In this document: positions 1 through 53,300 of the stretch, piece by piece
How positions within the stretch are numbered: position 1 is the stretch's first letter
Layout: every line of letters starts with the position of its first letter
DNA from: an uncultured Thermodesulfovibrio sp.
GTDB taxonomy: Bacteria > Nitrospirota > Thermodesulfovibrionia > Thermodesulfovibrionales > UBA6898
Direction of reading: 5' to 3'
NCBI GenBank assembly: GCA_964499365.1
Contig: CAZCKU010000014.1
Location: 27,136-91,135 of the forward strand
DNA length: 64,000 nucleotides
Translations under genes and position numbers: made by a program
Notes under the pieces: model-generated
Told to the model about the DNA's origin: nothing
Databases searched by the model: none
Seen by the model: only the letters and a program-made list of their open reading frames with translations

Positions 1-221
1 ATGTCATAGACGAAGATATAGAGATCCCGGTCAACAAACTTTCCCTTGGGGTTGCCGAACTCGGCGAAGGCCTTGTCTTTGCCGTGCTCCTTCATGTAGG
101 CGACTGCCTTTTTGACGAGGGCTTCTGCTTCTGCCTTTGTCCCGAATTCGGCGGCGAATACTGAGCCGGAAAAACAGATGAGCAATACGGCGGCCAACAG
201 CATGGCATAGCTTTTCTTCAT
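1..221 (-). CDS. periplasmic single-Cache (sCache_2-like) domain protein, N-terminal fragment; the gene runs off the window start
   Basis: Not in the ORF track (no stop in window). Reverse-strand ATG at 219-221 sits behind an AAGGAGAG RBS. Translation MKKSYAMLLAAVLLICFSGSVFAAEFGTKAEAEALVKKAVAYMKEHGKDKAFAEFGNPKGKFVDRDLYIFVYD gives a signal peptide plus a typical Cache_2 N-terminus. Track ORF 31..273(-) is a different, Arg-rich, implausible frame. Confidence 0.6.
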   Translation of the reverse strand, partial: MKKSYAMLLAAVLLICFSGSVFAAEFGTKAEAEALVKKAVAYMKEHGKDKAFAEFGNPKGKFVDRDLYIFVYD

Positions 222-492
222 GTGGTCTCTCCTTTGATATCGAGGGTTGATAAACTGTCCTTGTCCTGCACAACGCTGAGACGGGTGCCCGAACCTCCTT
301 TCCTCCAGTAAGGTCTAACGACAGAAAGCTTCAGGGAACTATGCAAACCCGCAAGCCGCGATCAGCGCGCAGGATTGTTCTTTTAAATCGGTACAAAGCG
401 GAGCAATCTTTAACCTGCAGTCAATGGATATCGAATATGTATCAGTACTGCCGTCTGCAGGGAAAGGCGGAAAGCGGTTTTACCCCCTTGAG

Positions 493-780
493 TTATTTCC
501 CGTGGATCGGGGGCATCCGGCTGATACCGGTCAACTCGACGACCTTGGTTTTTGACGATTGGCCGCGGACTATTTTTATGGCTGCTTTTTTTATCCCGAA
601 GGCCTCGGCCAGGACCTCGACCAGCTGGTCGTTTGCTGCCCCCTCAACCGGCGGAGCGGTCAGCTTCACCTTCAGCTTATTCCCCAGGACCCCGGCGATG
701 CCTCTCTTTGAGGAACGCGGCTCAACCTTGATCTCGATGCAGATGCCGTCTTTCGTCCGGGTGAAGGGTATGTCGTCCAC
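493..780 (-). CDS. DUF167 / YggU family protein
   Basis: 95-aa ORF. IEIKVEPRSSKRGIAG...LKVKLTAPPVEGAANDQLVEVLAEAFGI matches the canonical YggU/DUF167 pattern. It lies 3 nt downstream of the histidine kinase gene. Confidence 0.8.
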   Translation of the reverse strand: MDDIPFTRTKDGICIEIKVEPRSSKRGIAGVLGNKLKVKLTAPPVEGAANDQLVEVLAEAFGIKKAAIKIVRGQSSKTKVVELTGISRMPPIHGK

Positions 781-783
781 AGG

Positions 784-2139
784 CTATTTCCCCTGCAGCG
801 GGAGCCGGACCGTGAAGGCCGAACCTTCGCCCTCGGTGCTCTGCAGTTCTATCCTGCCGCCGAGCACCTCAACGAGCTCCCTGACGATTGCCAGTCCAAG
901 CCCGATTCCGCTTGATTCATCCCCGCGATAGAACCGTTTGAAGATGAGTTCCCTCCTGTCTTCAGGTATGCCTGCTCCCGTGTCCCTGATCTCGACGAAA
1001 AACATATCCCTATCCCTGCCCGAAGCCACCGACACGCCGCCCTCCGTCGTATTCTTGATGGCGTTTGTCAGCAGGTTCTGCAGGATCCGCTCGAGCTTGT
1101 CCGTGTCTGTCAGGACGACAAGGTCGGTCTTCCCCACAAACGTCAGCGAGAGCCCCTTGTCAAGGGCGAGGGGGGCCAGCTTTGCGGTCATGTTCTCCAG
1201 GAATTCGCCGAGATTGATCAGGCTGTACCTGTTTTTTGTGAAGAAACTCGCCTCTGCCTTGGTGATGTCTTCAATGCCCTCAACGAGCCCGATCAGGCGC
1301 TCAATCTCGAGCCGTACGTTCTCGAGCCCGGCCTGCTTGTCCTCAACAACGCCGTCGATCATCGCCTCCACGTTCGCCTTTGCGATCGCCAGGGGGGTGC
1401 GCAGTTCGTGTGCTATGTTCGAGGTCAGCCGCTTCCGGAGTGCCTCTTCGCGCTCGAGCGCCTCTGCCATGAAGTTGAAGCTCCCGGCGAGTCTCCCCAG
1501 TTCGTCACGGTCAGAGCCGGCTTCGACGCGTGCGCTGAAATCGCCGCGTGCGAGCGTCTCGACCGCCTTTTTTATGCGCCGCAGCGGCCGCGAGAGAAAG
1601 AGGCTGAAGAAGACGGCCAGGAGGACCGCGCCGCTCCCCGCGATAATGAAGGAGGTGATCAGAAACTCCCGGCCCTTGCGTTTGAACATCAGCTGCTTTT
1701 CACTGATCGGGCCCTGCCTGCCGAGGTCCCTCACCTGCATCTGTCCGATTTCCCGGCCTTCGCTGTAGAGCGGGTGGCCGTCGTATTCTCCGGTTGCCGA
1801 ACTGATGTCGGCGATCCCGTGCATCCGCCGCTTCATCGACGGAGAGAGCATGCTCATCGCGTGTTCGGAACTCATCAGTTCCCGGTCGCTGCTGTCGGTC
1901 ACCCTGATGTCGAACCCGAGCATGACCGCCCAATGGGCGGCGTCATGCAGGGAACGAAGGTCCCACGCATCATCGGAATAGCTGCCCTCGACCGAGGCAA
2001 GTATCCAGTAGAGCTTGTCTTCCCTGGTGCCGCTGATATACTCCTCGAAATCGCGCACCATCAGCTGCTCATAGATGAAATTTGAAACCAGCGCCACCGC
2101 GATGACGGCAAAGAACGCCAGGAACAGCTTAGCCCTCAT
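784..2139 (-). CDS. sensor histidine kinase (TM-HAMP-HisKA-HATPase_c)
   Basis: Track ORF 784..2334 trimmed to the ATG at 2137-2139 (MRAKLFLAFFAVIAVALV, a TM helix), which overlaps the upstream regulator's stop by 11 nt. H-box SNIAHELRTPL; ATPase boxes DTGAGIP and GIGLGLAIV. Confidence 0.85.
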   Translation of the reverse strand: MRAKLFLAFFAVIAVALVSNFIYEQLMVRDFEEYISGTREDKLYWILASVEGSYSDDAWDLRSLHDAAHWAVMLGFDIRVTDSSDRELMSSEHAMSMLSPSMKRRMHGIADISSATGEYDGHPLYSEGREIGQMQVRDLGRQGPISEKQLMFKRKGREFLITSFIIAGSGAVLLAVFFSLFLSRPLRRIKKAVETLARGDFSARVEAGSDRDELGRLAGSFNFMAEALEREEALRKRLTSNIAHELRTPLAIAKANVEAMIDGVVEDKQAGLENVRLEIERLIGLVEGIEDITKAEASFFTKNRYSLINLGEFLENMTAKLAPLALDKGLSLTFVGKTDLVVLTDTDKLERILQNLLTNAIKNTTEGGVSVASGRDRDMFFVEIRDTGAGIPEDRRELIFKRFYRGDESSGIGLGLAIVRELVEVLGGRIELQSTEGEGSAFTVRLPLQGK

Positions 2140-2833
2140 CGGCCGTCCCTGCGAAGCGGTATCCGATGCCGTAGACGGTCTTGATGAATTCCGGGTCCTT
2201 CGAGTCCTTCTCGATCTTGTGCCGGAGGTTCTTGACATGGGCATCGATCGTCCGGTCGTAGCCTTCAAAGTCAAAGCCCTGGGCGATCGTCGCCAGCTGG
2301 TCGCGGGAAAAAATCCTGCCGGGGTTTTCAGCAAATGCAGCCAGTATCCTGAATTCGGTCGGCGTCAGAACCATCTGCTCCCCCCGGACAAAAAGCTCGC
2401 GGTCGTCGACACTGATCTTCAGCGCCCCGCTGTTGTAGCTGATAAGCTTCTTCCGTGTCTTGTTCGCCCTCCTCAGCAGGGCCTTCACCCGGGCAACCAG
2501 TTCGCGGGGGCTGAAGGGTTTTACCACATAGTCGTCCGCGCCGATCCCCAGGCCCCGTATGCGTTCCTCTTCACCGCTCTTGGCGGTGAGCATGATGACC
2601 GGCACGTCTGAGTTCTCGCGGATCAGGCGGCAGATGTCCTCGCCCTGCATATCCGGGAGCATCAGGTCCAGCACCACGAGGGCGAACCGCTCCCTGAGCA
2701 GACGGAGGGCCTCTTCGCCGGTCGCCGCATGCCTCACCTCATATCCCTCCCTCTCGAGATAGGCCCGGACGATGTCCGCTATCTTGCGTTCGTCCTCAAC
2801 GACCAGTATCGATTCTTTTTGAACGGTATCCAT
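2129..2833 (-). CDS. OmpR-family response regulator (REC + winged-helix)
   Basis: ILVVEDE...LVVLDLMLPD...KPF receiver motifs. The C-terminal LTPTEFRIL...YGIGYRF is a Trans_reg_C winged helix. Confidence 0.9.
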   Translation of the reverse strand: MDTVQKESILVVEDERKIADIVRAYLEREGYEVRHAATGEEALRLLRERFALVVLDLMLPDMQGEDICRLIRENSDVPVIMLTAKSGEEERIRGLGIGADDYVVKPFSPRELVARVKALLRRANKTRKKLISYNSGALKISVDDRELFVRGEQMVLTPTEFRILAAFAENPGRIFSRDQLATIAQGFDFEGYDRTIDAHVKNLRHKIEKDSKDPEFIKTVYGIGYRFAGTADEG

Positions 2834-3677
2834 AGAAGACCTCCCCCATGATAATCGTGATTACGGTCAGGACTACGCCCCCGATGACATCGACGACATA
2901 ATGATATCTGCAGTAGACCGTGGAAAATACAAGCGCTGCAACCACCGGCAGCAGGACAGAGAACAGCCGGCGCTCAAACCGGTGCGCCATATAGAGGACT
3001 GTCAGCGCAATCCCCGTATGTCCGCTCGGGAAGGCGTCCCTCTTGATGCCCTCCAGGGCGTTCAGGAGCGATTGTATCTGCCCGGCGACGACCCAGCCCT
3101 GAAGCTCCTGCGTCTGCAGGTGCGCCATCGTGTAGCGGGGCCCGAGCGCCGGAAAGAACAGGTAGCCGACATAGGAAAGATAAAAACAGAGCATGATAAA
3201 GAAGAGCGTGCGGTCGAACTCGGCCTCTTTCCGCTTGCGGTACAGGGCAATCCCCAGGGCGAAGGGGATGAGGTAGTAGCTCGAATAGGAGAGCTGCAGA
3301 ACCTCCGTCAAAAGCGGGTTCGCGATCTTTTCGAGTTCGACCGTCGGATAACAGCCCAGAAGCATATAGTCCAGCCTGATCAGCAGGGGGTCGATATCCC
3401 GGGGATTCAGGGAATGTACGATCTTTTCGAAGCTGTCGAATATCAACAGGATCGAAACCGTGGGGAAGATAAGCGCATGGAGCAGATGCAGGGGCCTGGA
3501 CCGGTCCTTTACCCTGATCACCACGAGCTGCAGGAATATCATGACCGAATAGAGTGCTATCAGCAGGGGAGGGTTCGCTATGCGGCTGTGCATGACGGAG
3601 ACGACTGCCGTCAGCAGCAGCAGGAAGAAAAGGTTCAGGAGATCGGCAGGCCGCTGCCGGAGGAGCGCCGCGATCAC
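2796..3677 (-). CDS. PAP2-superfamily integral membrane phosphatase/phosphotransferase
   Basis: Multi-TM protein with PSGHTG and RYHYVVDVIGG, the PAP2 C2/C3 motifs. Four-nt ATGA-type overlap with the upstream NYN gene. Confidence 0.7.
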   Translation of the reverse strand: MIAALLRQRPADLLNLFFLLLLTAVVSVMHSRIANPPLLIALYSVMIFLQLVVIRVKDRSRPLHLLHALIFPTVSILLIFDSFEKIVHSLNPRDIDPLLIRLDYMLLGCYPTVELEKIANPLLTEVLQLSYSSYYLIPFALGIALYRKRKEAEFDRTLFFIMLCFYLSYVGYLFFPALGPRYTMAHLQTQELQGWVVAGQIQSLLNALEGIKRDAFPSGHTGIALTVLYMAHRFERRLFSVLLPVVAALVFSTVYCRYHYVVDVIGGVVLTVITIIMGEVFYGYRSKRIDTGR

Positions 3678-4162
3678 AGCTTCTTCAGCACCCTGGCCAG
3701 GGCCTTCTCCCGTCGTGAAGGCATTCTCGGATTTCCCCTCCCTGGTGCCGGCAGGTCTTCTTCCTCCGGTTCATCGGGGTGTTCGGGGCCCCTGCCGCTC
3801 CTCTCCAGCAGCGGCTCAAAAAGATGAGACTGCACCGGCACGCAGCCCTTTGACCAGGCATGGGACATGATGTCGCGGTCTGACGTGACCACGACCAGTT
3901 CATTGCCGGACTGGTCGATGATATTCTTTATGACGAGGTCTGCCCTGTCACCCAGGCGCGAATAGATGATCTTTACTCCGGCGACGGTTGTCTTTTCTTC
4001 ACGGTGAGTTCCGGCTTTCCAGCCGTCGAAGACGACGGTCAGGTCATGGCCTTTTTTTTTGTGATAGAGGGCAAGACGTTCTATCAGCCTGCTCCTTGCG
4101 GCCTGCAGGTCATTGTGCGCAATGCCTATAAGGTTGTATCCGTCTATGATAAGCGATGCCAA
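3674..4162 (-). CDS. NYN/YacP-like (PIN-fold) predicted RNase
   Basis: LIIDGYNLIG...VVFDG...VVTSDRD is the YacP/NYN signature. First gene of the minus-strand operon. Confidence 0.7.
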   Translation of the reverse strand: MASLIIDGYNLIGIAHNDLQAARSRLIERLALYHKKKGHDLTVVFDGWKAGTHREEKTTVAGVKIIYSRLGDRADLVIKNIIDQSGNELVVVTSDRDIMSHAWSKGCVPVQSHLFEPLLERSGRGPEHPDEPEEEDLPAPGRGNPRMPSRREKALARVLKKL

Positions 4163-4428
4163 AACAGGGTCCCTCTGACAGAAATAATATTTTAATCAGT
4201 ATACCCCGCCGGGCTGAAAAATAAAAGAAAAGCAGGGGCCGGGTCCCTGGCATGCCTGTTCCGGACAGGTCGTGCCTGAGTTCGGTACAGAAAATCTGCG
4301 GGAGATACTGTGCCCTCCATTTCGTATTGTCTATCGCCGGGAGAAGGGGAAGCTTCTCATCGTGCGGATATGGCGGAGTGAGCGCCTTTTGAAATTGCTG
4401 TGACCTCGTCCCCCTCTCTCTCAATTAT

Positions 4429-4458
4429 TTGACTTAACCCTCTTTTATGGATTACATT
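4429..4458 (+). promoter_or_regulatory. candidate sigma-70 promoter for tRNA-Pro
   Basis: TTGACT (4429-4434), 18-nt spacer, TACATT (4453-4458), ending 7 nt before tRNA position +1. Confidence 0.3.
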
Positions 4459-4465
4459 ATCTGCT

Positions 4466-4562
<97 letters not shown>

Positions 4563-4630
4563 TTGACCTTCAATAGTCGGATAATGCACCCGTGCTTTAC
4601 TGGGAATCTCGTTGATGCAGAGGAGAAATC

Positions 4631-5035
4631 ATGAATAAATTATCCCTGGCATTGATCGGCTTGATCTGCCTCCTGTTTGTCGGAGTATCTCATGCCGATG
4701 CCATGCAGATATTTGTCAAAACAGTAACAGGCAAGACCATTACCCTGGACGTTGAGCCAAGTGATTCAATCGAGAACGTAAAGGCAAAGATCCAGGATAA
4801 AGAGGGAATACCCCCTGAACAGCAAACCTTACTGTTTGCCGGGAAAACACTTGAGGATGGTCGCACACTGTCAGATTACAATATACAGAAGGAATCCACG
4901 CTCCATCTTATTGTAAATGCTGTTGCTGCACCCCCCCAGAGCGTGCCTGCCCTGAATGAATGGGGGATGATTATATTTGTTCTGGTATCGGGTGCAGGGT
5001 CGGTTTATTATTTGAGAAGGCGAGAGATCTGTTAA
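4631..5035 (+). CDS. exported eukaryote-like ubiquitin with C-terminal IPTL/PEP-CTERM-type sorting tag (no diglycine tail)
   Basis: GAGGAG RBS 5 nt upstream. Signal peptide [24 protein letters not shown]. Then [71 protein letters not shown], identical to canonical ubiquitin at 62 of 71 positions. The tail [28 protein letters not shown] is motif + TM helix + Arg cluster. Confidence 0.9.
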
Positions 5036-5123
5036 AGAACACTTCATGACAAAATCAGTGAAGTGAAGGAAAACGACGTGTAAGTATTCCCTGGTTTTCA
5101 ACAGGTTGTTATTGCGGCAGACC

Positions 5124-5166
5124 GTTCGAATCCTCTCTCCCCGCCCGTTTTATCTCCCTTCTTCTC
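5124..5166 (+). repeat. right copy of tRNA-Pro 3'-end direct repeat; attR-like
   Basis: GTTCGAATCCTCTCTCCCCGCCCGTTTTATCTCCCTTCTTCT. It shares a perfect 14-nt core, GTTCGAATCCTCTC, and about 31 matches over ~38 hand-aligned positions with 4520-4562. Confidence 0.6.
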
Positions 5167-5223
5167 CCGTTTTCCCTGCATTGCTTTGGCCTTATTTGCC
5201 GTGTTAATCTAACCAAAGGATAC

Positions 5224-7263
5224 ATGTCAAAAGGAAACATGAACGACGAGCCGCGGTCTGATCGAAAAAAGAAAGCTGACGCAGACAAAACGACAGAAGA
5301 ACTGATCCGGGAACTCTCGGCCGCCCGCAGTCAGATTGCCGAATACGAATCTCTGAAGGACGAGTATCGGCGTGTCGAGAGCATCATGCGGCAGGCGGTC
5401 ATCATGGCCAAAGAGGAAAAGGCACGGACCGATGCCATTATTGCGGCGATCGGCGACGGCATCAGCGTGCAGGACACCAATTTCAAGGTCCTGCTCCAGA
5501 ACCAGTTTCACCGGGACATGCTCGGCGACCACGTCGGTGAATTCTGCCATAAGGCCTACCAGAAGAGGGACAAGGTCTGCGAGGGCTGCCATCTTGCGAT
5601 GTCCTTTCTGGACGGCAAGGTCCATAAGAAGGAACAGTTCAGGACAACCGACCAGGGGATACGGTACTACGAAATCACCTCCTCGCCTCTGAAGGACTCG
5701 ACCGGCAGGGTCATTGCCGGTATCGAGGCGGTCCGTGATATCACCGAGCGAAAGAAGACCGAGCAGGCCCTGCTGTCGGCAGAGGCCAGATTCAGGACCC
5801 TTGTCGAGCAGTCGTTCGTCGGCATTTATATCATCCAGGACAATGCCTTTACCTATGTCAACCCGAAGTTTTCCGAAATCTTCGGCTATTCGCAGCAGGA
5901 GCTTCTGCAGCATCCCTTTATTGATCTGGTTGCTGACGAAAGCAGGGACCTTGTGACCGAAAATATCCGCAGGCGGATCGACGGTGAGATCAGGTCGGTC
6001 CACTATGTACTGCGGGGAAGGAGAAAGGACGGATCCCTCTTTGATGCGGAGGTCCAGGGTTCGACGACCGAACTGAACGGCAGGACCGCGATCATCGGGA
6101 CCCTGATCGATATTACGGAACGCCGCCGGCTTGAGCGGGAAAATCTGAAGGCCCAGAAGCTGGCGTCGCTCGGCATTCTGGCTGCGGGCATCGCCCATGA
6201 ATACAACAATGCCCTGACCGCGATCAACGGGAACATCGGACTTGCAAAGATGTATGCAAAGCCTGACTCCGAGATGGCCGATATATTGGCTGAGGCTGAG
6301 AAGGCGGCTCAGAAGGCCGAGCGTCTGACTCAGGAACTCAGGCTGTTTTCGAAGGGCGGGGCCCTGTTCAGGAAGGTTGCCGTGGTTCCCGGCCTTGTTA
6401 CTGAAATCGTGCAGGAGAAGGCAGACCCGCGCATCAGCTATGCGATCGATATCAGTCCGGACGTCTGGACGATCGAGGCCGACGAGATGCAGTTCCGGCA
6501 GGCGATCAGCAACATTATCGAAAACGCCCGGGAGGCGATGTCCGGGGGCGGGACGATCAGGATCGCTGCAGAGAATGTTGAGCATGCCCCGGAGAAGCTG
6601 ACCTCGATCAGGCCGGGCAGGTATGTGCGGTTTTCGATCAGCGACCAGGGCTCGGGAATATCAGAAACCCATATTGAGAAGATCTTCGAGCCCTTCTTCA
6701 CGACCAAGGAGCAGGGCAGCGGGCTGGGGCTGACGACCGCCTCGTCGATCATCGAAGGGCATGAAGGGTACATTACCGTTGAATCGTCCGCAGGTTCCGG
6801 TTCGATTTTCCATATCTACATGCCTGCGACGCCGGAAGCGGGTGGTGCGGCAGACAACGGGAAGCGGCGTTCCCTCGGCAGCCGGCGGATTCTGGTCATG
6901 GACGATGAAGAGATGGTCAGGACGGTCGCAGAGAGGATGCTGAATCAGTGCGGCTGCTCCGCCACCTTTGCCGCCGACGGCCGGGAGATGCTGTCAGTCT
7001 ACCGCGAGGCGTTCGAGGCCGGCCGGCCGTTTGACGCCGTCATCGTCGATCTGCTCGTCGCCACCGGCATGGGCGGGAAGGAGGCGATTGCAGAGCTGCT
7101 GAGGTTTGATCCCGCAGCAAAGGCGATTGTATCGAGCGGCTATTCGGACGATCCGATCATCGAAAATTTCCGGGAGTATGGCTTCAGGGGCATTCTGCCG
7201 AAGCCCTACCTGATCCCTGCCCTGAAGCGGGTGCTGCATGATGTCATCATCGGGCCGTCTTAA
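5224..7263 (+). CDS. hybrid sensor histidine kinase (coiled coil, 2x PAS, HisKA, HATPase_c, REC)
   Basis: First PAS carries the Cys cluster FCHKAYQKRDKVCEGCH. H-box AAGIAHEYNNALTAI; ATPase boxes DQGSGI and GSGLGL; C-terminal receiver ILVMDDEE...VIVDLLV...KPY. Confidence 0.85.
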   Translation: MSKGNMNDEPRSDRKKKADADKTTEELIRELSAARSQIAEYESLKDEYRRVESIMRQAVIMAKEEKARTDAIIAAIGDGISVQDTNFKVLLQNQFHRDMLGDHVGEFCHKAYQKRDKVCEGCHLAMSFLDGKVHKKEQFRTTDQGIRYYEITSSPLKDSTGRVIAGIEAVRDITERKKTEQALLSAEARFRTLVEQSFVGIYIIQDNAFTYVNPKFSEIFGYSQQELLQHPFIDLVADESRDLVTENIRRRIDGEIRSVHYVLRGRRKDGSLFDAEVQGSTTELNGRTAIIGTLIDITERRRLERENLKAQKLASLGILAAGIAHEYNNALTAINGNIGLAKMYAKPDSEMADILAEAEKAAQKAERLTQELRLFSKGGALFRKVAVVPGLVTEIVQEKADPRISYAIDISPDVWTIEADEMQFRQAISNIIENAREAMSGGGTIRIAAENVEHAPEKLTSIRPGRYVRFSISDQGSGISETHIEKIFEPFFTTKEQGSGLGLTTASSIIEGHEGYITVESSAGSGSIFHIYMPATPEAGGAADNGKRRSLGSRRILVMDDEEMVRTVAERMLNQCGCSATFAADGREMLSVYREAFEAGRPFDAVIVDLLVATGMGGKEAIAELLRFDPAAKAIVSSGYSDDPIIENFREYGFRGILPKPYLIPALKRVLHDVIIGPS

Positions 7264-7275
7264 CCTGGTCCTGTA

Positions 7276-8559
7276 GTGCGCTTTATCGCAGACCTCCATA
7301 TCCATTCGAAATATTCCCGCGCGACCAGTCCGGATATGTCCCCGGAGAGTCTCTGGCGATGGGCCCAGATCAAGGGGATTTCGGTCATCGGCACCGGAGA
7401 TTTTACCCATCCGGTCTGGCTCGGAGAACTCCGCGAAAAGCTCGAGCCCCTCGGTAACGGTCTCTTCACGCTGAAGGAGAAATACCGGCCTGCGGACGTC
7501 CCTGCAGCCTGCAGGTCCGAGGTCTTTTTTCTCCTCACGGCAGAGATAAGCTGCATCTACCGCAAATACGACCGCACCAGGAAGGTCCATTCCCTCCTCT
7601 TCACCCCTGCGTTCGGGGACGCCGAGCGTATCAACGCGGCCCTGTCTGAGATCGGGAATCTCCGCGCGGACGGCAGGCCGATCCTTGGTCTTGATGCAAG
7701 GAAACTCCTCATGACGGTGCTGGAGCAGTCCCCGGAATCGATGCTGGTGCCGGCGCATGCCTGGACCCCGCATTTTTCCCTGTTTGGCGCTTCCTCGGGG
7801 TTTGATACGATGGAGGAATGTTTTGAAGACCTGTCGCCCCATATACACGCCATCGAGACCGGGCTTTCGTCGGACCCGCCGATGAACTGGAGGCTGTCGG
7901 CCCTTGACCGGGTTACCCTGATATCGAATTCTGATGCCCATTCTCCCGCGAAGATCGGGAGGGAGGCGAATATCCTGGATACGGAGATCTCCTATCAGGG
8001 GATTGCCAGCGCACTCAGGGACCGGAAGGGCTTTGCCGGGACGATCGAGTTTTTCCCTGAGGAGGGCAAGTATCACAACGACGGCCATCGCAGCTGCGGC
8101 GTCAGCATGCCGCCGGAGGAGACGCAGCGGCACGGCGGGCTCTGCCCTGTCTGCGGGAAGAGGGTGACGGTCGGAGTCACACACCGCGTTGCGCTGCTGG
8201 CCGACAGGGATGCCGGATTCAGGCCTGCTGGTGCCCCGCCTTTTTATTCCGTCATCCCGCTTGCCGAAGTCATCGCCGAGACGATACAGAAAGGGGTGAA
8301 TACCAAGGCAGTCACCGCCGCCTATTCTTCCCTGATCAATGCCCTCGGCAGCGAGTTCGGCATTCTCCTGGACTGCCCGCTGCAGGATATAACAAAGGCG
8401 GGGGAAAAGGCCGGGTCAGCGCTGGTTGCGAGTGCGCTCGAAAAGATGCGTGCCGGCGACGTACAGATAGCGCCGGGATACGATGGCGAATACGGAAAGA
8501 TCAGGATCCTTGAGAAGGTCGAGCGTCCCTCTCCCAAAGGTCAGGCGCCGCTTTTCTGA
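7276..8559 (+). CDS. PHP-domain endonuclease Q-like protein (TIGR00375-type)
   Basis: PHP metal motifs ADLHIHSKYSRATS, HAWTPHFS and SNSDAHS. Zinc-ribbon HRSCG...CPVCGKRVTVGVTHRV. This is the architecture I recall for EndoQ. Confidence 0.6.
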   Translation: MRFIADLHIHSKYSRATSPDMSPESLWRWAQIKGISVIGTGDFTHPVWLGELREKLEPLGNGLFTLKEKYRPADVPAACRSEVFFLLTAEISCIYRKYDRTRKVHSLLFTPAFGDAERINAALSEIGNLRADGRPILGLDARKLLMTVLEQSPESMLVPAHAWTPHFSLFGASSGFDTMEECFEDLSPHIHAIETGLSSDPPMNWRLSALDRVTLISNSDAHSPAKIGREANILDTEISYQGIASALRDRKGFAGTIEFFPEEGKYHNDGHRSCGVSMPPEETQRHGGLCPVCGKRVTVGVTHRVALLADRDAGFRPAGAPPFYSVIPLAEVIAETIQKGVNTKAVTAAYSSLINALGSEFGILLDCPLQDITKAGEKAGSALVASALEKMRAGDVQIAPGYDGEYGKIRILEKVERPSPKGQAPLF

Positions 8560-9221
8560 TGCAGCTGTCCCTCCCGTTTACCGGTGATCAGGAATCCCTC
8601 CAGGCGCGTCTGAGAAAACTGACAGCGGCCGATATCAGGCTGACGCTGACTGATAACGCGTCGAGCATGATCTCCTTCAGAAGGGAGCAGGGCGTCACCC
8701 TTCTGCGGCTCCACCGGATGTTCCTGAAGGCCGGACCGGAGGTCATTGATGAGATCGCCCGCTTTACCCGAAACACGAGGCTGAAGACCCCCCTGATACG
8801 GCAGTTTATCAGGGAACATGCGGGTGCCCTGCCGGTCAGGCCTCCCAGGAAGACGGTCCTGACTACCCGCGGACGATACCACGACCTTGGGGCGCTGGCG
8901 CGGACCGTGAACCATCAGTACTTCGACGGCAGGATAGCTGCCGGAATAACCTGGGGCACCCGGAAGACGGGCCACGCGGTCAGGCGCAGGATACTCGGGA
9001 GCTATAACAGCCGCACCAATACCATACGGATCAACCCGGTACTCGACAGGAAGAACGTCCCGAAGTATTATCTTGAGTTTATCATCTACCATGAGATGCT
9101 CCATGCCGATATGGGCGTCGGCAGGAAGAACGGCAGGCGGGAAGTGCATTCCCGCGAATTCAGGCGGCGGGAAAGACTGTTCAGCCATTTTGAGAAGGCA
9201 CTCCTGTGGGAGAAAAATTAA
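8559..9221 (+). CDS. SprT-like zinc metalloprotease-fold protein
   Basis: LGSYNSRTNTIRINPVL...LEFIIYHEMLHAD (HExxH)...HSREFRRRE. The start overlaps the EndoQ-like stop by 1 nt (TGATG). Confidence 0.55.
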   Translation: MQLSLPFTGDQESLQARLRKLTAADIRLTLTDNASSMISFRREQGVTLLRLHRMFLKAGPEVIDEIARFTRNTRLKTPLIRQFIREHAGALPVRPPRKTVLTTRGRYHDLGALARTVNHQYFDGRIAAGITWGTRKTGHAVRRRILGSYNSRTNTIRINPVLDRKNVPKYYLEFIIYHEMLHADMGVGRKNGRREVHSREFRRRERLFSHFEKALLWEKN

Positions 9222-32631: not shown

Positions 32632-34731
32632 ATGATCGGTATGCACAGCGGCATATATGAAACGCTCAAGGGCTGTATCATTAAATACCGGCAGACGTTT
32701 GTCACCGGGATATTCCTCATCCAGGTTGCGCTCGCAAACTACTGTGCCTTTATCCTCCGGTTCGACACGCTGCTGCCTGCGGCATATCTGGAGAAATTCC
32801 TGACGTACCTGCCGGTGCTTCTCCTTGTCCGCCTCTTCTTCCATTTCCTGCTCGGACTGCACCGGGGCCTCTGGCGCTACGCCAGCATCAGCGATATGAT
32901 CAAGATCGTCAATTCCGCCACTCTCGGCAGTATCGTATTCCTGGTGGCCGTGGACTATGTTGCCGGCGATCCGGCCTATCCTCATTCGATCTACATACTC
33001 GACTGGCTGCTGTTCATCATCATATCGGGAGCAACCAGGCTCCTGCTGAGGGTATTCAGGGAATATGCGCTGAGTGAGGCCTCCCGCAAGAATATCCTGA
33101 TCGTCGGGGCTGGGGACGCCGGCGAGCTGCTGGTGCGGGAAATGAAGCATAATCACGACAGCGACTATGAGCCGGTCGGCTTTATCGACGACGATCCACA
33201 GAAACAGGGACTCACCATACACGGGGTGCCGATCCTGGGGCAGTGCAGCATGCTCCCGGAGATCATCCGGAAGCATAAACCCGCAGAAATCCTTATCGCG
33301 GTATCGACCGATGCGCAGCAGATCATACAGAAGGTGTATGAAATATGCAAGCCGTTCAACCTGCCGATCAAAAAACTGCCGGGGATACACGATCTGCTTG
33401 ACGGGAACGTATCGGTGGCGACGAAGCTCGGCCAGCGCCTCGTGGAGGCCGGGCTTGTCTCTGAAGGCCAGATACAGGAGGCCCTCGACTCCCAGAAGAA
33501 GGAGGGCGGGAGGCTGGGGTCGATCCTGGTGCGGCTCGGCTATCTCACTGAGGAGAAATTCATTGAGTTCCTGAACAGACAGCAGGGTATTTCGCACATG
33601 AAACCGATCTCGCTGGTCGACCTGCTCCAGAGAGACCAGGTGAAAACGGACATTACCTCGGTCAGGAGCCTCATCGGCGGCAAATCAGTCATCGTGACCG
33701 GCGCCGGCGGCTCGATCGGTTCGGAACTCTGCCGGCAGATCATAAAATACAAGCCGTCCAGGCTGATATTGTTCGACCGGTATGAAAACAGCACCTTCGA
33801 GGTGGACAACGAATTGAAGGCCCTGGGCCATGATGATACAATACTCACCACGATCATCGGCGACATTCAGGATATCCAGCACCTGGAGCAGACCTTTCTC
33901 CGCTATAAACCGCAGATCGTCTTTCACGCTGCGGCGTATAAACATGTGCCCCTTATGGAACACAATCCGGTCGAGGCGATCAAAAACAACGTCTTCGGCA
34001 CGAAAAACGTGATTGACGCCGCATCGCGCCACTGCTCGGAGAGTTTTGTGCTGATCTCGACGGACAAGGCGGTCAATCCCTCCAGTATTATGGGTGCCAC
34101 CAAGCGTATCGCCGAATTTCTGACGGTCAATATGAATTCCTTCTGCGGTACAAAATTTACGACGGTACGCTTTGGAAACGTGCTCGGGACGAACGGAAGC
34201 GTTGTGCCGATTTTCAAGGAACAGGTGAAAAAGGGTGGTCCGGTGACGGTTACCCATCCCGAGGTGAAGAGATTCTTCATGCTGATTCCCGAGGCCGTCC
34301 AACTGGTGCTGATCGCGGCCGCGTCGGGCCGGGGCGGCGAGATATTCGTTCTCGACATGGGCAGTCCCATCAAGATCATCGACCTGGCTGAAAACTTTAT
34401 CCGGCTTTCGGGGTTTATTCCGCATCAGGAGATCAAGATCAAATATACCGGACTGCGGCCCGGAGAAAAACTCTACGAAGACCTCTTTGATGAAACAGAG
34501 ATCATGGTCCCGACGAACCACAAGAAACTCATGACTGCACTGCCCAGTGTCCCATCCTCTGTCGTCCTCCACGGTCATCTCGCCGCGCTGGAGGAGATCG
34601 TCCGCAACTATGCCGCTGAAGACATTGTTCCGAAGATGCGGGACATATTGCCGAGCTTCAGGGGCGGTTTCCCGGATGTCCCCGGCGTTGAAGGAGTGGC
34701 TGAAATAATCATGCAATCAGGGAAACTGTAA
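32632..34731 (+). CDS. membrane-anchored UDP-GlcNAc 4,6-dehydratase (PglF/WbpM/CapD family) with an inserted MshEN-type domain
   Basis: Four N-terminal TM helices; Rossmann-like linker ILIVGAGDAGE; catalytic SDR VIVTGAGGSIGSEL...AAAYKHVPLME...STDKAV. An extra ~60-aa segment sits between the linker and catalytic domains. Confidence 0.85.
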   Translation: MIGMHSGIYETLKGCIIKYRQTFVTGIFLIQVALANYCAFILRFDTLLPAAYLEKFLTYLPVLLLVRLFFHFLLGLHRGLWRYASISDMIKIVNSATLGSIVFLVAVDYVAGDPAYPHSIYILDWLLFIIISGATRLLLRVFREYALSEASRKNILIVGAGDAGELLVREMKHNHDSDYEPVGFIDDDPQKQGLTIHGVPILGQCSMLPEIIRKHKPAEILIAVSTDAQQIIQKVYEICKPFNLPIKKLPGIHDLLDGNVSVATKLGQRLVEAGLVSEGQIQEALDSQKKEGGRLGSILVRLGYLTEEKFIEFLNRQQGISHMKPISLVDLLQRDQVKTDITSVRSLIGGKSVIVTGAGGSIGSELCRQIIKYKPSRLILFDRYENSTFEVDNELKALGHDDTILTTIIGDIQDIQHLEQTFLRYKPQIVFHAAAYKHVPLMEHNPVEAIKNNVFGTKNVIDAASRHCSESFVLISTDKAVNPSSIMGATKRIAEFLTVNMNSFCGTKFTTVRFGNVLGTNGSVVPIFKEQVKKGGPVTVTHPEVKRFFMLIPEAVQLVLIAAASGRGGEIFVLDMGSPIKIIDLAENFIRLSGFIPHQEIKIKYTGLRPGEKLYEDLFDETEIMVPTNHKKLMTALPSVPSSVVLHGHLAALEEIVRNYAAEDIVPKMRDILPSFRGGFPDVPGVEGVAEIIMQSGKL
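33424..33582 (+). other. tandem 24-residue MshEN c-di-GMP-binding motifs inside the dehydratase
   Basis: KLGQRLVEAGLVSEGQIQEALDSQ, then KKEGG, then RLGSILVRLGYLTEEKFIEFLNRQ. Both halves fit RLGxx(L/V/I)(L/V/I)xxG(L/V/I)(L/V/I)xxxxLxxxLxxQ and are separated by a 5-residue spacer. Confidence 0.75.
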
Positions 34732-36689: not shown

Positions 36690-38084
36690 ATGAGCATACC
36701 GGTTATTTTTTACGATAATACAGAAGACTATGTTCCCGATTTTACGCTGGAGCAGCTGCTTTCGGCCCACCGGATAAAGATGTTTTACCGCTTTTCGGAG
36801 GGGTGGGTCACCGTGGAGGCAGGGCTGCTGAGGGGGAAGGGCGGACGATCCGCGGGGACCTCTCCGGAGAATTATCCGGAGGCTTGTGTAACTGCCCGTT
36901 CAGGTGCTTATTCGGGTACCTATGCTGGGCCTGAGAGAAGAATGGGCGGCCGGCAGTATGAGACCGGGAGGGAGCAGCTTGAGTTGTGGAGCAGCAGGGA
37001 GCTGATCAGGCGGATCTACGAGGATTCACCTGTCGGGATAGGGCTCTGCGACTCCTTCGGAAAGCTGCTCGATGCAAACAGGTCCTACCTCGAACTCTTC
37101 GGACTGGATGCGATATCCGGGGCAGGTGCGTTCAATCTCTTTATCGACCCCGCTATCCCGTCCGATCTCAAGGACCGCATGCGCTGCGGCGAAACGGTCC
37201 GCTGCCGCCTGGTCGTGGACTTTGATCAGGTCCGTACAAGCGGTCTCTATGAAACGGGCAAGTCCGGGGTGATCACTCTGGAGATGCTGGTCTCCCCGAT
37301 CGTTGTCGCCTCCCCGGGCATGTGCCTCTATGTCGTTCAGGTGCATGACATAAGCCTTCAAAGGGAGGCGGAGGAGAAGGTCCAGACGATACAGCAGAGT
37401 GCAGCGATCGTGGTCGAGGCCGCTGCCCTGGCTGATGATCTCAATAATCTGCTGCAGGTTGTCCTGGGCAATATCTACCTGGCACGGCAGCTCGAGACAC
37501 CGGGCCGCGAGACAGCGAAATTTCTTGAGAGGGCCGAAACTGCCTCCCTGAGTGCAACGGCCCTGACCGCCCGTCTGACCGCCTTCCCGTGCATCGGGAT
37601 GCGGGACAGGGCGGCTGCCTTTTCCGATTCCTCCCGAACTGGTCAAGAGTCAGGGGACGACGGGTCAGGACATGAAAAAGCAGCCAGGACACCGGGTGAG
37701 GCCGGGAGGGTCCTGGTCATGGACGATACTGAGTCAGTCCGCAGAATCGCAGGAGCCTTCCTGATCCGGCTCGGGTATGCAGTGGAGTTTGCACAGGACG
37801 GTGATGAAGCAATTAGGATCTACGAGGCGGCGGACCGCGAGGGGAAGCCCTTTGACGTCGTGCTCCTGGATCTGACGGTGGCAGGGGGCAGGGGTGCCAG
37901 GGAGACCATCGGCAAAATGCTGGAACGGGATCCCGATGTCCGGGCGATCGTCTCAAGCGGGTACCATGACGACCCGGTCATGGCAGCGTTCAGTACGTAT
38001 GGTTTCAGTGGGGCGATTGCCAAACCCTATACCCTGGAGGAATTGGGCAGGACCGTCTCGATGGTCAAACACCGGCGAGCATGA
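36690..38084 (+). CDS. PAS / degenerate DHp (His->Asp, no ATPase domain) / REC signalling protein
   Basis: AGGAGG RBS. PAS around SPVGIGLCDSFGKLLDANRSYLELFG. AAALADDLNNLLQVVLGNIYLAR aligns to H-boxes such as GIAHEYNNALTAINGNIGLAK, with Asp at the His position. No N/G boxes. C-terminal receiver VLVMDD...VLLDLTV...KPY. Confidence 0.75.
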   Translation: MSIPVIFYDNTEDYVPDFTLEQLLSAHRIKMFYRFSEGWVTVEAGLLRGKGGRSAGTSPENYPEACVTARSGAYSGTYAGPERRMGGRQYETGREQLELWSSRELIRRIYEDSPVGIGLCDSFGKLLDANRSYLELFGLDAISGAGAFNLFIDPAIPSDLKDRMRCGETVRCRLVVDFDQVRTSGLYETGKSGVITLEMLVSPIVVASPGMCLYVVQVHDISLQREAEEKVQTIQQSAAIVVEAAALADDLNNLLQVVLGNIYLARQLETPGRETAKFLERAETASLSATALTARLTAFPCIGMRDRAAAFSDSSRTGQESGDDGSGHEKAARTPGEAGRVLVMDDTESVRRIAGAFLIRLGYAVEFAQDGDEAIRIYEAADREGKPFDVVLLDLTVAGGRGARETIGKMLERDPDVRAIVSSGYHDDPVMAAFSTYGFSGAIAKPYTLEELGRTVSMVKHRRA

Positions 38085-50333: not shown

Positions 50334-53300
50334 ATGAAAAACCAGCGGGTACCAGGATTGATAGCGTTCTTTATCGTATTGATGTGTCTCTTTAGCTGTC
50401 CGTCGGGAGTGCCCGCACAGACCGAGGGGTGTCCATCCGGAATCAGTCATTATTGGAAACTCGACGGCAGCAGTTCGCCCTATGCGGACTTCTATGGCGC
50501 CAATGCGGCTGTATGCACAAATTGCCCGGCAGCGACCATCGGCATCATCAATGGTGCACAGCAGTTCAGTGCAGAGAGCCTTCTGAGTGTCGTCGATGAT
50601 GATTCGTTCGACTGGGGTCTCAACGACAGTTTCTCTATTGAATTCTGGATGAACAGTGGTTCGTGCACCACGACGCAGGTAATGGTCGGCAGAAATGACG
50701 GCGGCAGCCCCCTGCTCTGGTATGCAGCCTGCACTGCCGGCAAGGTCGAGGTCTATTTCAGCGATGCAGCCGGAAATATCAGCGAGGCAACGGGTACAAC
50801 GGATATCGCAAATGGCAGCTGGAACCATATCGTTGCGGTGATGGATACGGCAACGAATGAGCTGCGTGTGTATGTAAACGGCGCAATCGAGCAGTCCGTG
50901 GCCACCTCCTTCAGCGGAGGCTTCGGTTCCTCGGCCCCGCTGAATATCGGCTGGATTAATCTCGCGGACGGCTATCATTTCTCAGGAATGCTGGATGAAG
51001 TTTCACTGTATAACAGGGTGCTGTCAGAGAGCGAGATCCGGCAGCATCACCGCGACGGCTCTATTGGCCTGGGCTGGGGCTATTGCGGCTGTGCCAGCCC
51101 TGCGAGGATCATGCCTCTGGGCGACTCGATCACCTACGGTGAGCCTCCGGACGATCCCATACTGGTTGCCGGCTATCGCAAGCCCCTGTATCAGACACTC
51201 TTTAATTCCGGCTATTCCTTTGACTTTGTGGGAAGCCTGCAGCACGGAGACAGTGCATTGTTTGATATTGACCATGAGGGCCACGGCGGCTGGGGGGCCA
51301 AGGCAGACAGGGGCTACGGCGGCGGCATTGCTCCCACGGTGCAGCAGTTCCTGACCGACCATCCCGCCGATGTGGTGCTGCTCCATATCGGCACGAACGA
51401 TATATCTGACGGCACGCAGAACGTCAACGACATAGCCGAAATACTCGACAACATCGACTTGATCAGCGAAAACATCGTGGTCGTCCTTGGACTGATCATC
51501 AACCGTACCGACGGGACCGATAAGGTCCTCGCAACGACGCAGTTCAATGATGACGTCGAAGCGATGGCAACGTCCCGCATTGCAGCCGGAGACCGGATCA
51601 TCATCGTCGACCATGAGACCGCCCTGAACTATGCCATGGACCTCGACGGCACGCTCCATCCGAATGCTGCGGGATATGCAAAGATGGCAGATGTCTGGAG
51701 TCAGGCACTGTCTGATATTCTGCCGCTGTGCGGCGAGACACCTCCCCTTATTGTCTCGGCCGCCAATACAGCAGCGTATGACGAATGGCCTTATTTCTAC
51801 GACGTTGCTGCCACGGGGTTCCCCTCTCCCACGTTTAGCCTTGTGACCGCGCCTTCGACCATGACGATAAATTCCAGTACAGGCCTGATTTCATGGATAC
51901 CCTCCAGCACCGGCAACTACAATGTCGCGGTCAAGGCCTCAAACACGCAGGGGGAATTTACGCAAAACTTCACGATACAGGTCGGAGACCCCTGGGCCTG
52001 TTCCTCGGAGATGATGTCTCATTACTGGAAGTTCGGTGAGGCAGCAGGACCAACCTATGAGGACGTGTTCGGCTTCAGCGATGCCACCTGCACCAATTGC
52101 CCGACCGCGGCAGAAGGTGTTGTCGGCGGCGGTCAGCAGTTCGATTCGGCGACCGAGCTGGGCGCAGACCTTGGTACTACGGCGAATTGGGGAGTTAACG
52201 ACAGTTTTTCGGTCGAGTTCTGGCTGAAGACCGCTGACTGCTCAGGAACGCAGGTCCTGGCCGGAAGAAATGACAGTTCGACCTCGCTGCACTGGTACGT
52301 AGCCTGCTCCGGGGGCAACATGGAGATATACCTGCGCGACACCGGGGGTGTCAGCAGCGATGTGGTCGGCATAAGAAATATTGCGGATGATACCTGGCAC
52401 CACGTTGCCGCGGTGAGAGATGCCGCAACAAAGGAGCTGAGCATATACGTTGACGGGAAGAGAGAGAACTCTATCAGAACGTCCTTCAAAAACGGATTCA
52501 CTTCAACGGTGCCATTCAATATCGGCTGGATTGATATGTCGCACGGCTATCACTTTGCCGGAGTCCTCGACGCCCTGGCCCTGTATAACAAGGCCCTGTC
52601 GGACGAGGAAATTCTGCAGCACTATCATAACGGGACGATCGGCACCGGGTACTGCAACGAGTATTCTTATGTAACACCGTCGGTCGGCTCCAACGGCAGC
52701 ATCAGCCCGGCGACAAAACAGAAGGTGAAGTACAGCAGGACCATAGCCTTCACCGTAACGCCGAACAACGGGTACCATATAAACTCTGTGACAGGCTGCA
52801 ACGGCACGCTTGTCGATAACACCTATACCACGGGTCCGATTACCGCTGACTGCAACGTCATCGCAACCTTTGCGTACGGGTCGGCAACAAATATCGTGAC
52901 ACCGTCGGCAGGAGCCAACGGCAACATCAGCCCGAACTCCCCGCAGACGATCGATTATGGCGAGACGACTGCCTTTACCGTCACCCCTGATACCGGGTAT
53001 CATGTTGTAGCTGTCACGGGTTGCGGGGGAACGCTCGTTGGAGACACCTACACCACAGGCCCGATAATCGCAGACTGCGGCGTATCGGCAAGCTTTGCGA
53101 TCAATACCTACACCGTGACGCCGTCGGCAGGAGCCAACGGCAGCATCAGCCCGGACACCCCGCAGACGGTCAACTACAACGACACCATATCCTTTACCGT
53201 AACTCCGGCTGCAGGCAGTCACCTTGTATCTGTCACGGGCTGCAGCGGTACGCTGGATGGAGATACCTACACAACCGCTCCTGTGACGGACGATTGTGCT

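Follow-up and report, generated by a model that had tools for sequence, protein, structure and literature searches.

A gene for a predicted exported ubiquitin-domain protein without Gly-Gly in a tRNA-Pro islet of a Thermodesulfovibrionales genome

The window analyzed here is a 64,000-nucleotide stretch of DNA from an uncultured Thermodesulfovibrio sp. (assembly GCA_964499365.1, contig CAZCKU010000014.1, positions 27,136 to 91,135 of the forward strand). Downstream of a tRNA-Pro gene, it contains an open reading frame (ORF) for a ubiquitin-domain protein, which a first-pass annotation had described as an exported, near-eukaryotic ubiquitin with a C-terminal sorting signal. Here, we report that this is probably a horizontally acquired gene whose product is a non-conjugatable ubiquitin-domain protein, exported and tethered to the cell envelope. 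The features of the locus are given below in window coordinates; loci from other assemblies are cited by L number.

4466..4543, plus strand: tRNA-Pro (TGG), the integration target (ARAGORN; Rfam tRNA, 66.3 bits).
4520-4543, plus strand: left direct-repeat copy, the last 24 nt of tRNA-Pro (repeat comparison).
4544..5147, plus strand: single-gene islet of 604 bp, inserted relative to syntenic relatives; G+C content (GC) 0.46 versus 0.566 for the window.
4557..4585, plus strand: sigma-70-like promoter candidate TTGTTA-17-GATAAT within the islet (consensus scan, 9/12 matches).
4620..4625, plus strand: Shine-Dalgarno-like GAGGAG, 5 nt 5' of the ATG, read from the sequence; GAGGAGAAAT likewise precedes the homologue at L006.
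4631..5035, plus strand: ubiquitin-domain ORF, 134 amino acids (aa), ATG start, 405 nt.
4631..4702, plus strand: signal peptide, residues 1-24 (hydropathy and the -3/-1 rule), with a predicted signal peptidase I cut after A-D-A.
4703..4915, plus strand: ubiquitin beta-grasp domain, residues 25-95, 62/71 identical to human ubiquitin (PF00240).
4916..4942, plus strand: Pro/Ala linker NAVAAPPQS in place of RLRGG, with no Gly-Gly (translation and family tail alignment).
4943..5035, plus strand: IPTL-CTERM-like tripartite tag, consisting of VPALNEWG, a hydrophobic helix (111-128), RRR, EIC, and the stop.
5124..5147, plus strand: right direct-repeat copy, a displaced, decayed tRNA-Pro 3' end (GTTCGAATCCTCTCTCCCCGCCCG), 21/24 identical to 4520-4543.

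The division of the ORF into leader, ubiquitin domain, and tail, as first proposed, was borne out by translation, PF00240, hydropathy, and tail alignment, and the translation given at that time was exact except that its two final residues (I-C) had been left out. The Pfam ubiquitin model PF00240 matched residues 27-96 at 97.9 bits (cut-off, 25.4; E = 2.9e-28) over profile positions 1-70 of 72, which places the protein in the ubiquitin family. In the HMMER alignment to ubiquitin chains in the PDB, 62 of 71 residues (87%) were identical, with E = 3.6e-37 for the 76-residue ubiquitin chain. The alternative of an ordinary beta-grasp protein of low identity was therefore not borne out. The nine substitutions (L8V, E16D, T22S, D39E, R42T, I44L, Q49T, V70I, and L71V) are the same set that had been listed by hand, and all seven lysines are retained, as had been claimed, together with I36, H68, and the beta-grasp core. 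Translation also confirmed that the ATG at 4703 encodes Met1 of ubiquitin. Because the domain is 87% identical to solved ubiquitin, its fold can be regarded as settled. Neither the ubiquitin core nor the linker contains a cysteine; one cysteine lies in the signal peptide (Cys13) and the other is the last residue, placed cytoplasmically relative to the helix. When the full-length protein was used as the query, eukaryotic polyubiquitins (85-91% identity) dominated the matches and no bacterial relatives were returned; the repeats of polyubiquitins add up in such scoring. In an exhaustive HMMER search with the last 60 residues, the matches listed were likewise polyubiquitins only.

The leader comprises a basic n-region (MNK), a 16-residue hydrophobic core (Kyte-Doolittle mean, 2.86), and alanines at -3 and -1. 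The sequence after A-D-A is M-Q-I-F, and the predicted mature protein has 110 residues with a hydrophobic tail. In the bacterial family described below, an A-x-A-like site lies right before ubiquitin Met1 in 75/78 members and the hydrophobic leader core is present in 76/78; the leader is also conserved in frame in the two closest homologues, L006 and P0393. Hydropathy and this conservation thus support the earlier prediction of a Sec signal peptide with an A-x-A cut at ubiquitin Met1. For the Bacteroides fragilis ubiquitin BfUbb, whose leader is arranged in the same way, secretion has been shown by experiment (PMC5705921).

The tail begins directly after L69-I70-V71 with NAVAAPPQS. A Gly-Gly C-terminus is required for E1 adenylation, and the claim that E1 activation is impossible therefore holds. 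Also as claimed, no conjugation genes were found nearby: the E1, E2, E3, JAB, and deubiquitinase families were absent from the 31 window and neighboring proteins scanned with Pfam or NCBIfam, a set that covers part of the window ORFs. Without Gly75-Gly76 and without E1/E2/E3 genes nearby, the protein cannot be a ubiquitin donor. Following the linker, the tag contains an 18-residue hydrophobic stretch (residues 111-128; Kyte-Doolittle, 1.63), and its RRR ends 3 residues before the stop. Together with the N-terminal signal peptide, the protein has the full tripartite layout of motif, helix, and basic cluster at the C-terminus, and VPALNEWG fits IPTLxxWG.

The window tail aligns in register with the tails of 16 family members, and within the family the PF18203 IPTL-CTERM cut-off (20.8 bits) is exceeded by L070 (27.1 bits) and L053 (28.4 bits); IPTL-CTERM tags that pass were counted in 8-9 of 72 members. 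On the basis of this alignment with tails above the cut-off, we assign the sub-threshold window tag as IPTL-CTERM-like. The first-pass assignment to the IPTL-CTERM type accordingly stands as to layout and alignment, but not by score, because the tag falls below the cut-offs of both PF18203 and TIGR04174. The IPTL-CTERM model outscored those for the LPXTG anchor and Heimdall-CTERM on this tail; midcut_by_XrtH scored higher than IPTL-CTERM (23.5 bits) and was also below its cut-off of 45. No PEP-CTERM model matched the protein at E <= 10, and the PEP-CTERM alternative is dropped. In a related Thermodesulfovibrionales contig, a 388-aa secreted non-ubiquitin protein with no Pfam match (L087, 14031-15197, minus strand) ends in INVPTMNQYGMVIFVVLSGLAAIFFLRRQKARV, with the tag INVPTMNQYGMVIFVVLSGLAAIFFLRRQ, which is nearly the same as that of the window protein. 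This lineage thus uses the tag on other cargo as well, which speaks for a working tag in it. Exosortase H bears the NCBI name "IPTLxxWG-CTERM-specific." From the tag, we infer that the window protein would be sorted to the surface. The sole studied IPTL-CTERM protein that we found, the S-layer protein mela_00855 of Methylomirabilis lanthanidiphila, lies in the outermost cell layer (PMC8671808). It has the same layout of signal peptide and tripartite tag, whereas in the window the tag is below the cut-offs, the cargo is a ubiquitin domain, and no cognate enzyme was seen.

The gene occupies a small insertion. The ATG lies 87 nt from the end of the tRNA-Pro, and the islet holds a promoter-like site, a ribosome-binding site (RBS), and the ubiquitin ORF; no integrase or recombinase is present in the 604 bp. 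The promoter candidate is suggestive only, since the consensus scan found 3 such sites where 1.2 were expected. The right repeat copy was not called as a tRNA by ARAGORN or Rfam, and the corresponding copy of strain L002 matches at 28/29 positions, counting the following GTTTT. Two Thermodesulfovibrionales relatives, L084 and L086, whose U32 peptidases are 88% and 86% identical to that of the window, have the order NYN_YacP, tRNA-Pro, and PAS histidine kinase; the genes are some 200 bp apart, and a ubiquitin gene is missing. In both, the post-tRNA sequence matches the window after 5147 and not directly after the window tRNA; for L084, 76/94 positions are identical, with an alignment score of 45 versus 5.5. 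From the direct repeats and the empty sites in both relatives, we conclude that 4544-5147 is an insertion with attL/attR-like repeats. As in tRNA-integrated islands, the insertion lies at the exact tRNA 3' end, a direct repeat of that end is present, relatives carry the empty site, and the GC is deviant; the islet differs from them in its length of 604 bp, its single gene, and its lack of an integrase or other mobility gene. The low GC of the islet, together with a third-codon-position GC (GC3) of 0.48 in the ORF versus 0.66-0.74 in neighboring genes, points to recent acquisition of the window gene from another, lower-GC bacterium through the tRNA-Pro islet. The eukaryote-to-bacterium transfer originally proposed is thus retained for the ultimate origin, but not for the copy in this genome.

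The assembly at this site is well supported. The exact window protein is present in NCBI, on a contig of 114 kb, and also in two Logan assemblies of different samples. L001 corresponds to window 4514-9018 (100%), L002 to window 4515-5873 (98.97%), and L083 to window 1-4512; the Logan contigs break within the tRNA, as expected where tRNA k-mers are common to many genomes. In three assemblies the ubiquitin gene is linked to the same downstream histidine kinase, and both L001 and L002 keep the gene and this neighbor. Since independent assemblies agree, a chimera at the downstream junction, which the first-pass annotation had named as a condition that would overturn it, is excluded. Between the window and L002, the 405-nt ubiquitin ORF has 0 differences and the remaining 955 aligned bases have 13; in the kinase gene, 7/8 differences are synonymous.

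A second single-gene ubiquitin islet was found at a tRNA-Asn in a Sediminihaliea sp. metagenome-assembled genome (MAG) (L024, 5809-6796; OZ244944.1). There, a 27-nt repeat of the tRNA-Asn 3' end occurs at 5853-5879 and 6770-6796 (24/27 identical; spacing, 917), and nothing lies between the repeats but one gene, which encodes a leader, a ubiquitin domain, and a tail with an IPTL tag. Leader-ubiquitin genes are often found beside tRNA genes. Such a gene lies no more than 250 nt downstream of a same-strand tRNA in the window, L011 (Phe), L024 (Asn), L053 (Ser), and L070 (Leu), and about 480 nt downstream in L055; in L057 and L072, a tRNA directly follows the gene. For a random gene, such adjacency is expected in about 1% of cases, as a rough estimate. 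When the 3' sides of tRNA-adjacent genes were searched for tRNA-end repeats, L024 alone was positive, and none were found in L053, L070, L011, L055, L008, or L013. There was no evidence for a phage vector: the 80 best matches among IMG/VR viral contigs were all giant-virus or eukaryotic-type ubiquitins, which end in or near Gly-Gly and have no leader.

Close relatives of the window gene are few. A search limited to the leader and tail gave just two 90%-identity clusters in 5.8 billion proteins, namely, that of the window protein itself and P0393. P0393 (137 aa) is intact, with leader, all seven lysines, and tag; it has V8, T42, T49, I70, V71, and the tail in common with the window protein, its own tail ending in KRRK. 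Its DNA identity to the window gene (80.6%) is confined to the gene, which lies in a 43%-GC locus of different context. The closest homologue at the DNA level, L006 6001-6456 (Thermodesulfovibrio sp. SW.3.86, PNOC01000002.1), matches the window gene in RBS, leader, and tail. It is disrupted, however: beyond GIPVDQQ, the rest (second half) of the ubiquitin domain is replaced by about 135 nt, and the tail-coding part persists. The replacement has a 26-nt inverted repeat, GGGGTCAGACTTGATTATTGACATTT ... AAATGTCAATAGTCAAGCCTGACCCC, and looks like a miniature inverted-repeat transposable element. The syntenic tRNA-Pro site in the MAG of L006 is empty (L086). With two clusters only, differing contexts, and the disruption in L006, the subfamily of the window gene is mobile, rare, and sometimes decaying.

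The domain itself is widespread. In a survey with one genome per prokaryotic species, at least 394 loci encode relatives; the detailed counts given here concern the 80 best loci by similarity to the window query, and the true family is probably more diverse. These 80 comprise 73 bacterial loci with a hydrophobic leader ending just before MQIFVKT, 5 eukaryotic polyubiquitin contaminants, and 2 archaeal, leaderless loci. The hosts belong to Pseudomonadota, Verrucomicrobiota, Planctomycetota, Bacteroidota, Bacillota, Actinomycetota, Myxococcota, Acidobacteriota, Chloroflexota, Desulfobacterota, Nitrospirota, and other phyla, and they include isolates and complete genomes: Saccharibacillus, Cohnella, Ruminococcus albus 8, Pseudomonas danubii, Limnohabitans DCL3, Brevundimonas sanguinis, and Novipirellula rosea. 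Downstream of the ubiquitin domain, autotransporter barrels are found in 19/72 members, IPTL-CTERM tags in 8-9/72 (best E = 1.3e-10), a choice-of-anchor U domain in 6/72 (often ahead of an IPTL-CTERM tag), and SLH domains in 4 of 72; fn3, Ig-like, and OmpA domains and one PEP-CTERM-like tail also occur. Short forms without cargo are the window protein, L003, L005, L053, and L070. Those of Cocleimonas flava (L053) and Brevundimonas sanguinis (L070), each 128 aa, have the three-module layout of the window protein together with the above-threshold tags already mentioned.

The family consensus differs from human ubiquitin at E16D and T22S only. The 79 bacterial cores are 75-99% identical to human ubiquitin (median, 92%), which places the window core (87%) on the divergent side. 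Their synonymous sites are saturated, with a median proportion of synonymous differences (pS) of 0.88; the proportion of nonsynonymous differences (pN) is 0.10. Core GC3, which takes values between 0.17 and 0.96, tracks the GC of the host locus (r = 0.88). Given the saturated pS, low pN, and host-tracking GC3, the leader-ubiquitin genes are long resident in bacteria and under strong purifying selection, and they are not fresh eukaryotic DNA. Across the 73 family loci, no gene neighbor was common beyond close relatives, and no partner or immunity gene was found. E16D and T22S were also considered as a means of inferring the donor; this was set aside, as they are found alike in bacterial, giant-virus, and eukaryote-type units, all selected by similarity to the window.

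Several other arrangements were seen among these loci. Paralogous pairs of leader-ubiquitin genes, 0.2-3 kb apart and with cores 73-87% identical to the window core, occur in L004, L010, L038, and L061. Five loci of beta- and gammaproteobacteria share a conserved ORF, about 387 aa long and without a Pfam match, immediately upstream of the leader-ubiquitin gene (4676-5839 in L008; homologues in L013, L023, L041, and L050); a tRNA-Arg precedes this ORF in L008 and L013. In two Methanobacteriota MAGs (L058, 6028-6459; L066, 2612-2929), a near-canonical ubiquitin domain is internal, with more than 100 residues before it and no signal peptide; in these ORFs, SSTSGR is followed by MQIFVKT and, later on, LRLRSS or LRLRGN, and the architecture is unlike that of the window protein. 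The short contigs L068, L077, L078, and L081, from bacterial MAGs or genomes, carry head-to-tail polyubiquitin (RGGMQIF repeats), and L073, also short, carries a lone leaderless ubiquitin ending in Gly-Gly; all are probably eukaryotic contamination.

In the literature searched, which included few subscription journals, no paper joined ubiquitin with IPTL-CTERM, PEP-CTERM, or exosortase, and nothing relevant was found for ubiquitin with autotransporters or with XrtH. The multi-phylum class of ubiquitin-headed bacterial envelope proteins thus appears to be undescribed there. The same holds for a tagged ubiquitin, as had been supposed, but such genes are not rare in databases, where the relatives noted above are found. 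In a 2018 paper, B. fragilis was called the only bacterium with a eukaryotic-type ubiquitin. BfUbb is reported to be 63% identical to human ubiquitin. Eukaryotic ubiquitin is cytosolic, whereas the window protein is predicted to be exported and has LRLRGG replaced; the window gene is a single bacterial-style gene with an RBS. The secreted ubiquitin-extension effectors of Globodera rostochiensis, which act outside the producer cell on another organism (PMC5705921), resemble it in having a signal peptide, ubiquitin, and a noncanonical C-terminal extension, and they differ in having a eukaryotic producer and, where the window protein has a membrane sorting tag, an effector peptide of 12 residues.

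According to the proposed mechanism, the pre-protein would be exported through Sec and cut by signal peptidase I after Ala24, the mature protein would start at ubiquitin Met1, and the beta-grasp domain would fold outside the cytoplasm. Thermodesulfovibrionales (Nitrospirota) are diderm. At first, the C-terminal helix would hold the protein in the inner membrane, its RRR facing the cytoplasm, and a cognate exosortase-type enzyme, if present in the host, might cut the tag at or near VPALNEWG and deliver the ubiquitin domain to the surface or matrix. Although not a ubiquitin donor, the protein would retain seven lysines and a free Met1 amino group. In the weakest step, the domain would be recognized as ubiquitin and act on the cell surface as a mimic or decoy toward the ubiquitin-binding proteins of eukaryotes that graze on the bacterium or host it. 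Recognition as ubiquitin is favored as the most plausible role, because the domain has stayed nearly identical to the eukaryotic protein and fold maintenance alone does not need about 90% identity.

Several observations weigh against an envelope-tethered ubiquitin mimic. The tag scored 16.7 bits with PF18203 (cut-off, 20.8) and 17.1 bits (full length) or 18.0 bits (mature) with TIGR04174 (cut-off, 20.5). No exosortase was matched among the proteins scanned in the 64-kb window, and a regular-expression scan of the same stretch gave no second tagged ORF. Since the gene is a recent arrival in this genome, the host may lack the sorting enzyme or have a mismatched one. The canonical hydrophobic patch is altered by L8V, I44L, and V70I, with R42T and Q49T adjacent to it. 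The AlphaFold2 single-sequence model was uninformative, with a mean predicted local distance difference test score of 45.5. The disrupted copy in L006 suggests that the gene is dispensable in the Thermodesulfovibrio lineage. Free-living anaerobic Nitrospirota are not known to have a eukaryotic partner. Finally, the localization, processing, and binding of the protein are predictions from its sequence.

Among other explanations, the ubiquitin domain could be an ultrastable, fast-folding N-terminal cap, or a solubility or chaperone-recruiting module, with no eukaryotic partner and with the window protein as a cargo-less version. We consider this unlikely. It would fit the N-terminal position of the domain on large passengers, as in the 19 autotransporters and the SLH, fn3, and Ig-like proteins, but the short forms have no cargo to assist. 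A ubiquitin-like fold is compatible with much lower identity, as NEDD8 and SUMO show, and a folding role leaves unexplained the 92% median identity at saturated synonymous divergence. BfUbb binds a periplasmic peptidyl-prolyl isomerase (PPIase) (PMC11467351), a hint that ubiquitin folds can engage envelope chaperones.

A BfUbb-like antibacterial toxin, exported, perhaps released from its tag, and entering related bacteria to inactivate a periplasmic target such as a PPIase, has a small chance of being correct. BfUbb and its relative BoUbb (PDB 8HM1-3 and 8YPT) are the only characterized bacterial ubiquitin homologues (PMC5705921, PMC11467351). They share with the window protein a eukaryotic ubiquitin ancestry, strain-variable and horizontally acquired genes, leader cleavage at ubiquitin Met1, no Gly-Gly, and no conjugation machinery. 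The window gene is, moreover, a strain-variable, horizontally moved singleton, as are many toxin genes. BfUbb, which the first-pass annotation had cited as precedent, is indeed the closest described relative found, but the two proteins are identical at only 42/76 positions (55%), which does not make them close relatives; the BfUbb sequence used in this comparison matched residues 1-76 of PDB 8HM3 with 166.7 bits. BfUbb and BoUbb are 61-63% identical to human ubiquitin, versus 87% for the window protein, and the family median of 92% contrasts with the 63% reported for BfUbb. BfUbb and BoUbb are free 76-residue toxins (BfUbb being diffusible), whereas the mature window protein has 110 residues and ends in a tag or membrane anchor. 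For the C-terminal disulfide, which is reported to be crucial to antagonism by both toxins (PMC11467351), there are no counterpart cysteines in the window protein, whose ubiquitin core is cysteine-free. The toxins come from Bacteroidota, the window protein from Nitrospirota, and the toxins use a Bacteroides SusCD importer; that of BfUbb, ButCD, is reported from Bacteroides with one other exception and not from the other Bacteroidales genera checked (PMC11467351). On these comparisons, the window protein is not a member of the BfUbb/BoUbb family.

The gene might instead be a functionless hitch-hiker, a recent cassette whose product lies idle in the inner membrane or is unexpressed and which is heading to decay. 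The recent insertion, the unadapted codon usage, the disrupted homologue in L006, the rarity of the subfamily, and the absence of a sorting enzyme in view would all be consistent with this. It is nonetheless improbable: nothing interrupts the ORF, which comes with an RBS and a promoter-like site; its sequence is the same in two strains whose flanks are 1% apart; and an intact orthologue, P0393, keeps leader, lysines, and tag at 80.6% DNA identity. The last explanation, that eukaryotic ubiquitin DNA was misassembled or misbinned into a bacterial contig, as probably happened for 5 of the best 80 prokaryote-genome matches, is effectively refuted by the bacterial leader, RBS, and tag, the same bacterial neighbor in three assemblies from different samples, the att-like repeats bounding the gene at a site empty in relatives, and the homologues in complete genomes of isolates.

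The genes surrounding the islet encode YggU, a two-component pair, PAP2, NYN_YacP, a PAS hybrid kinase, a SprT-like protein, RNase H, the U32 peptidase, and a SPOR response regulator. The best named relatives of the U32 peptidase come from Thermodesulfovibrio sp. (86%), Nitrospiraceae, Thermodesulfovibrionales, and Dissulfurispiraceae, which places the host among the uncultured Thermodesulfovibrionales. Farther downstream, window 26500-63300 is a long glycan or exopolysaccharide-type locus with a sugar dehydrogenase, aminotransferases, and several glycosyltransferases. It contains a fused sugar-transferase/dehydratase with an MshE-like cyclic di-GMP motif (32632-34731), a 1,084-aa secreted protein with LamG/ConA-like, GDSL lipase, He_PIG, and InlB B-repeat-like domains (50334-53588, plus strand), and an O-antigen-ligase-like protein (61836-63251) with weak similarity to the exosortase-A-associated ligase (62.8 bits versus a cut-off of 188). 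A hybrid PAS histidine kinase/receiver lies at 36690-38084 (plus strand); its first 56 residues match the domain of the GSU3473 family (48.2 bits versus 40), which is named after Geobacter.

Ubiquitin is regarded as a hallmark of eukaryotic cytosolic signaling, and BfUbb and BoUbb were the only bacterial cases in the literature searched. In fact, hundreds of species, some of them cultured and tractable, encode a leader-bearing, near-perfect ubiquitin on autotransporters, exosortase-type tags, or S-layer anchors. We tentatively raise the possibility, which we rate as somewhat unlikely, that bacteria widely display genuine ubiquitin (75-99% identity) after a signal peptide and thereby engage eukaryotic ubiquitin recognition, with minimal tRNA cassettes spreading the genes. 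If this is true, the displayed ubiquitin could act as a decoy, a chain-building acceptor, or an adhesin. The 604-bp and 917-bp single-gene tRNA islets also pose the question of how such minimal cassettes move. If eukaryotic proteins read these domains as ubiquitin, molecular mimicry would be widespread at the interface between bacteria and protists or hosts; if they do not, a new explanation would be needed for why ubiquitin is so extremely conserved where no conjugation system is at work.

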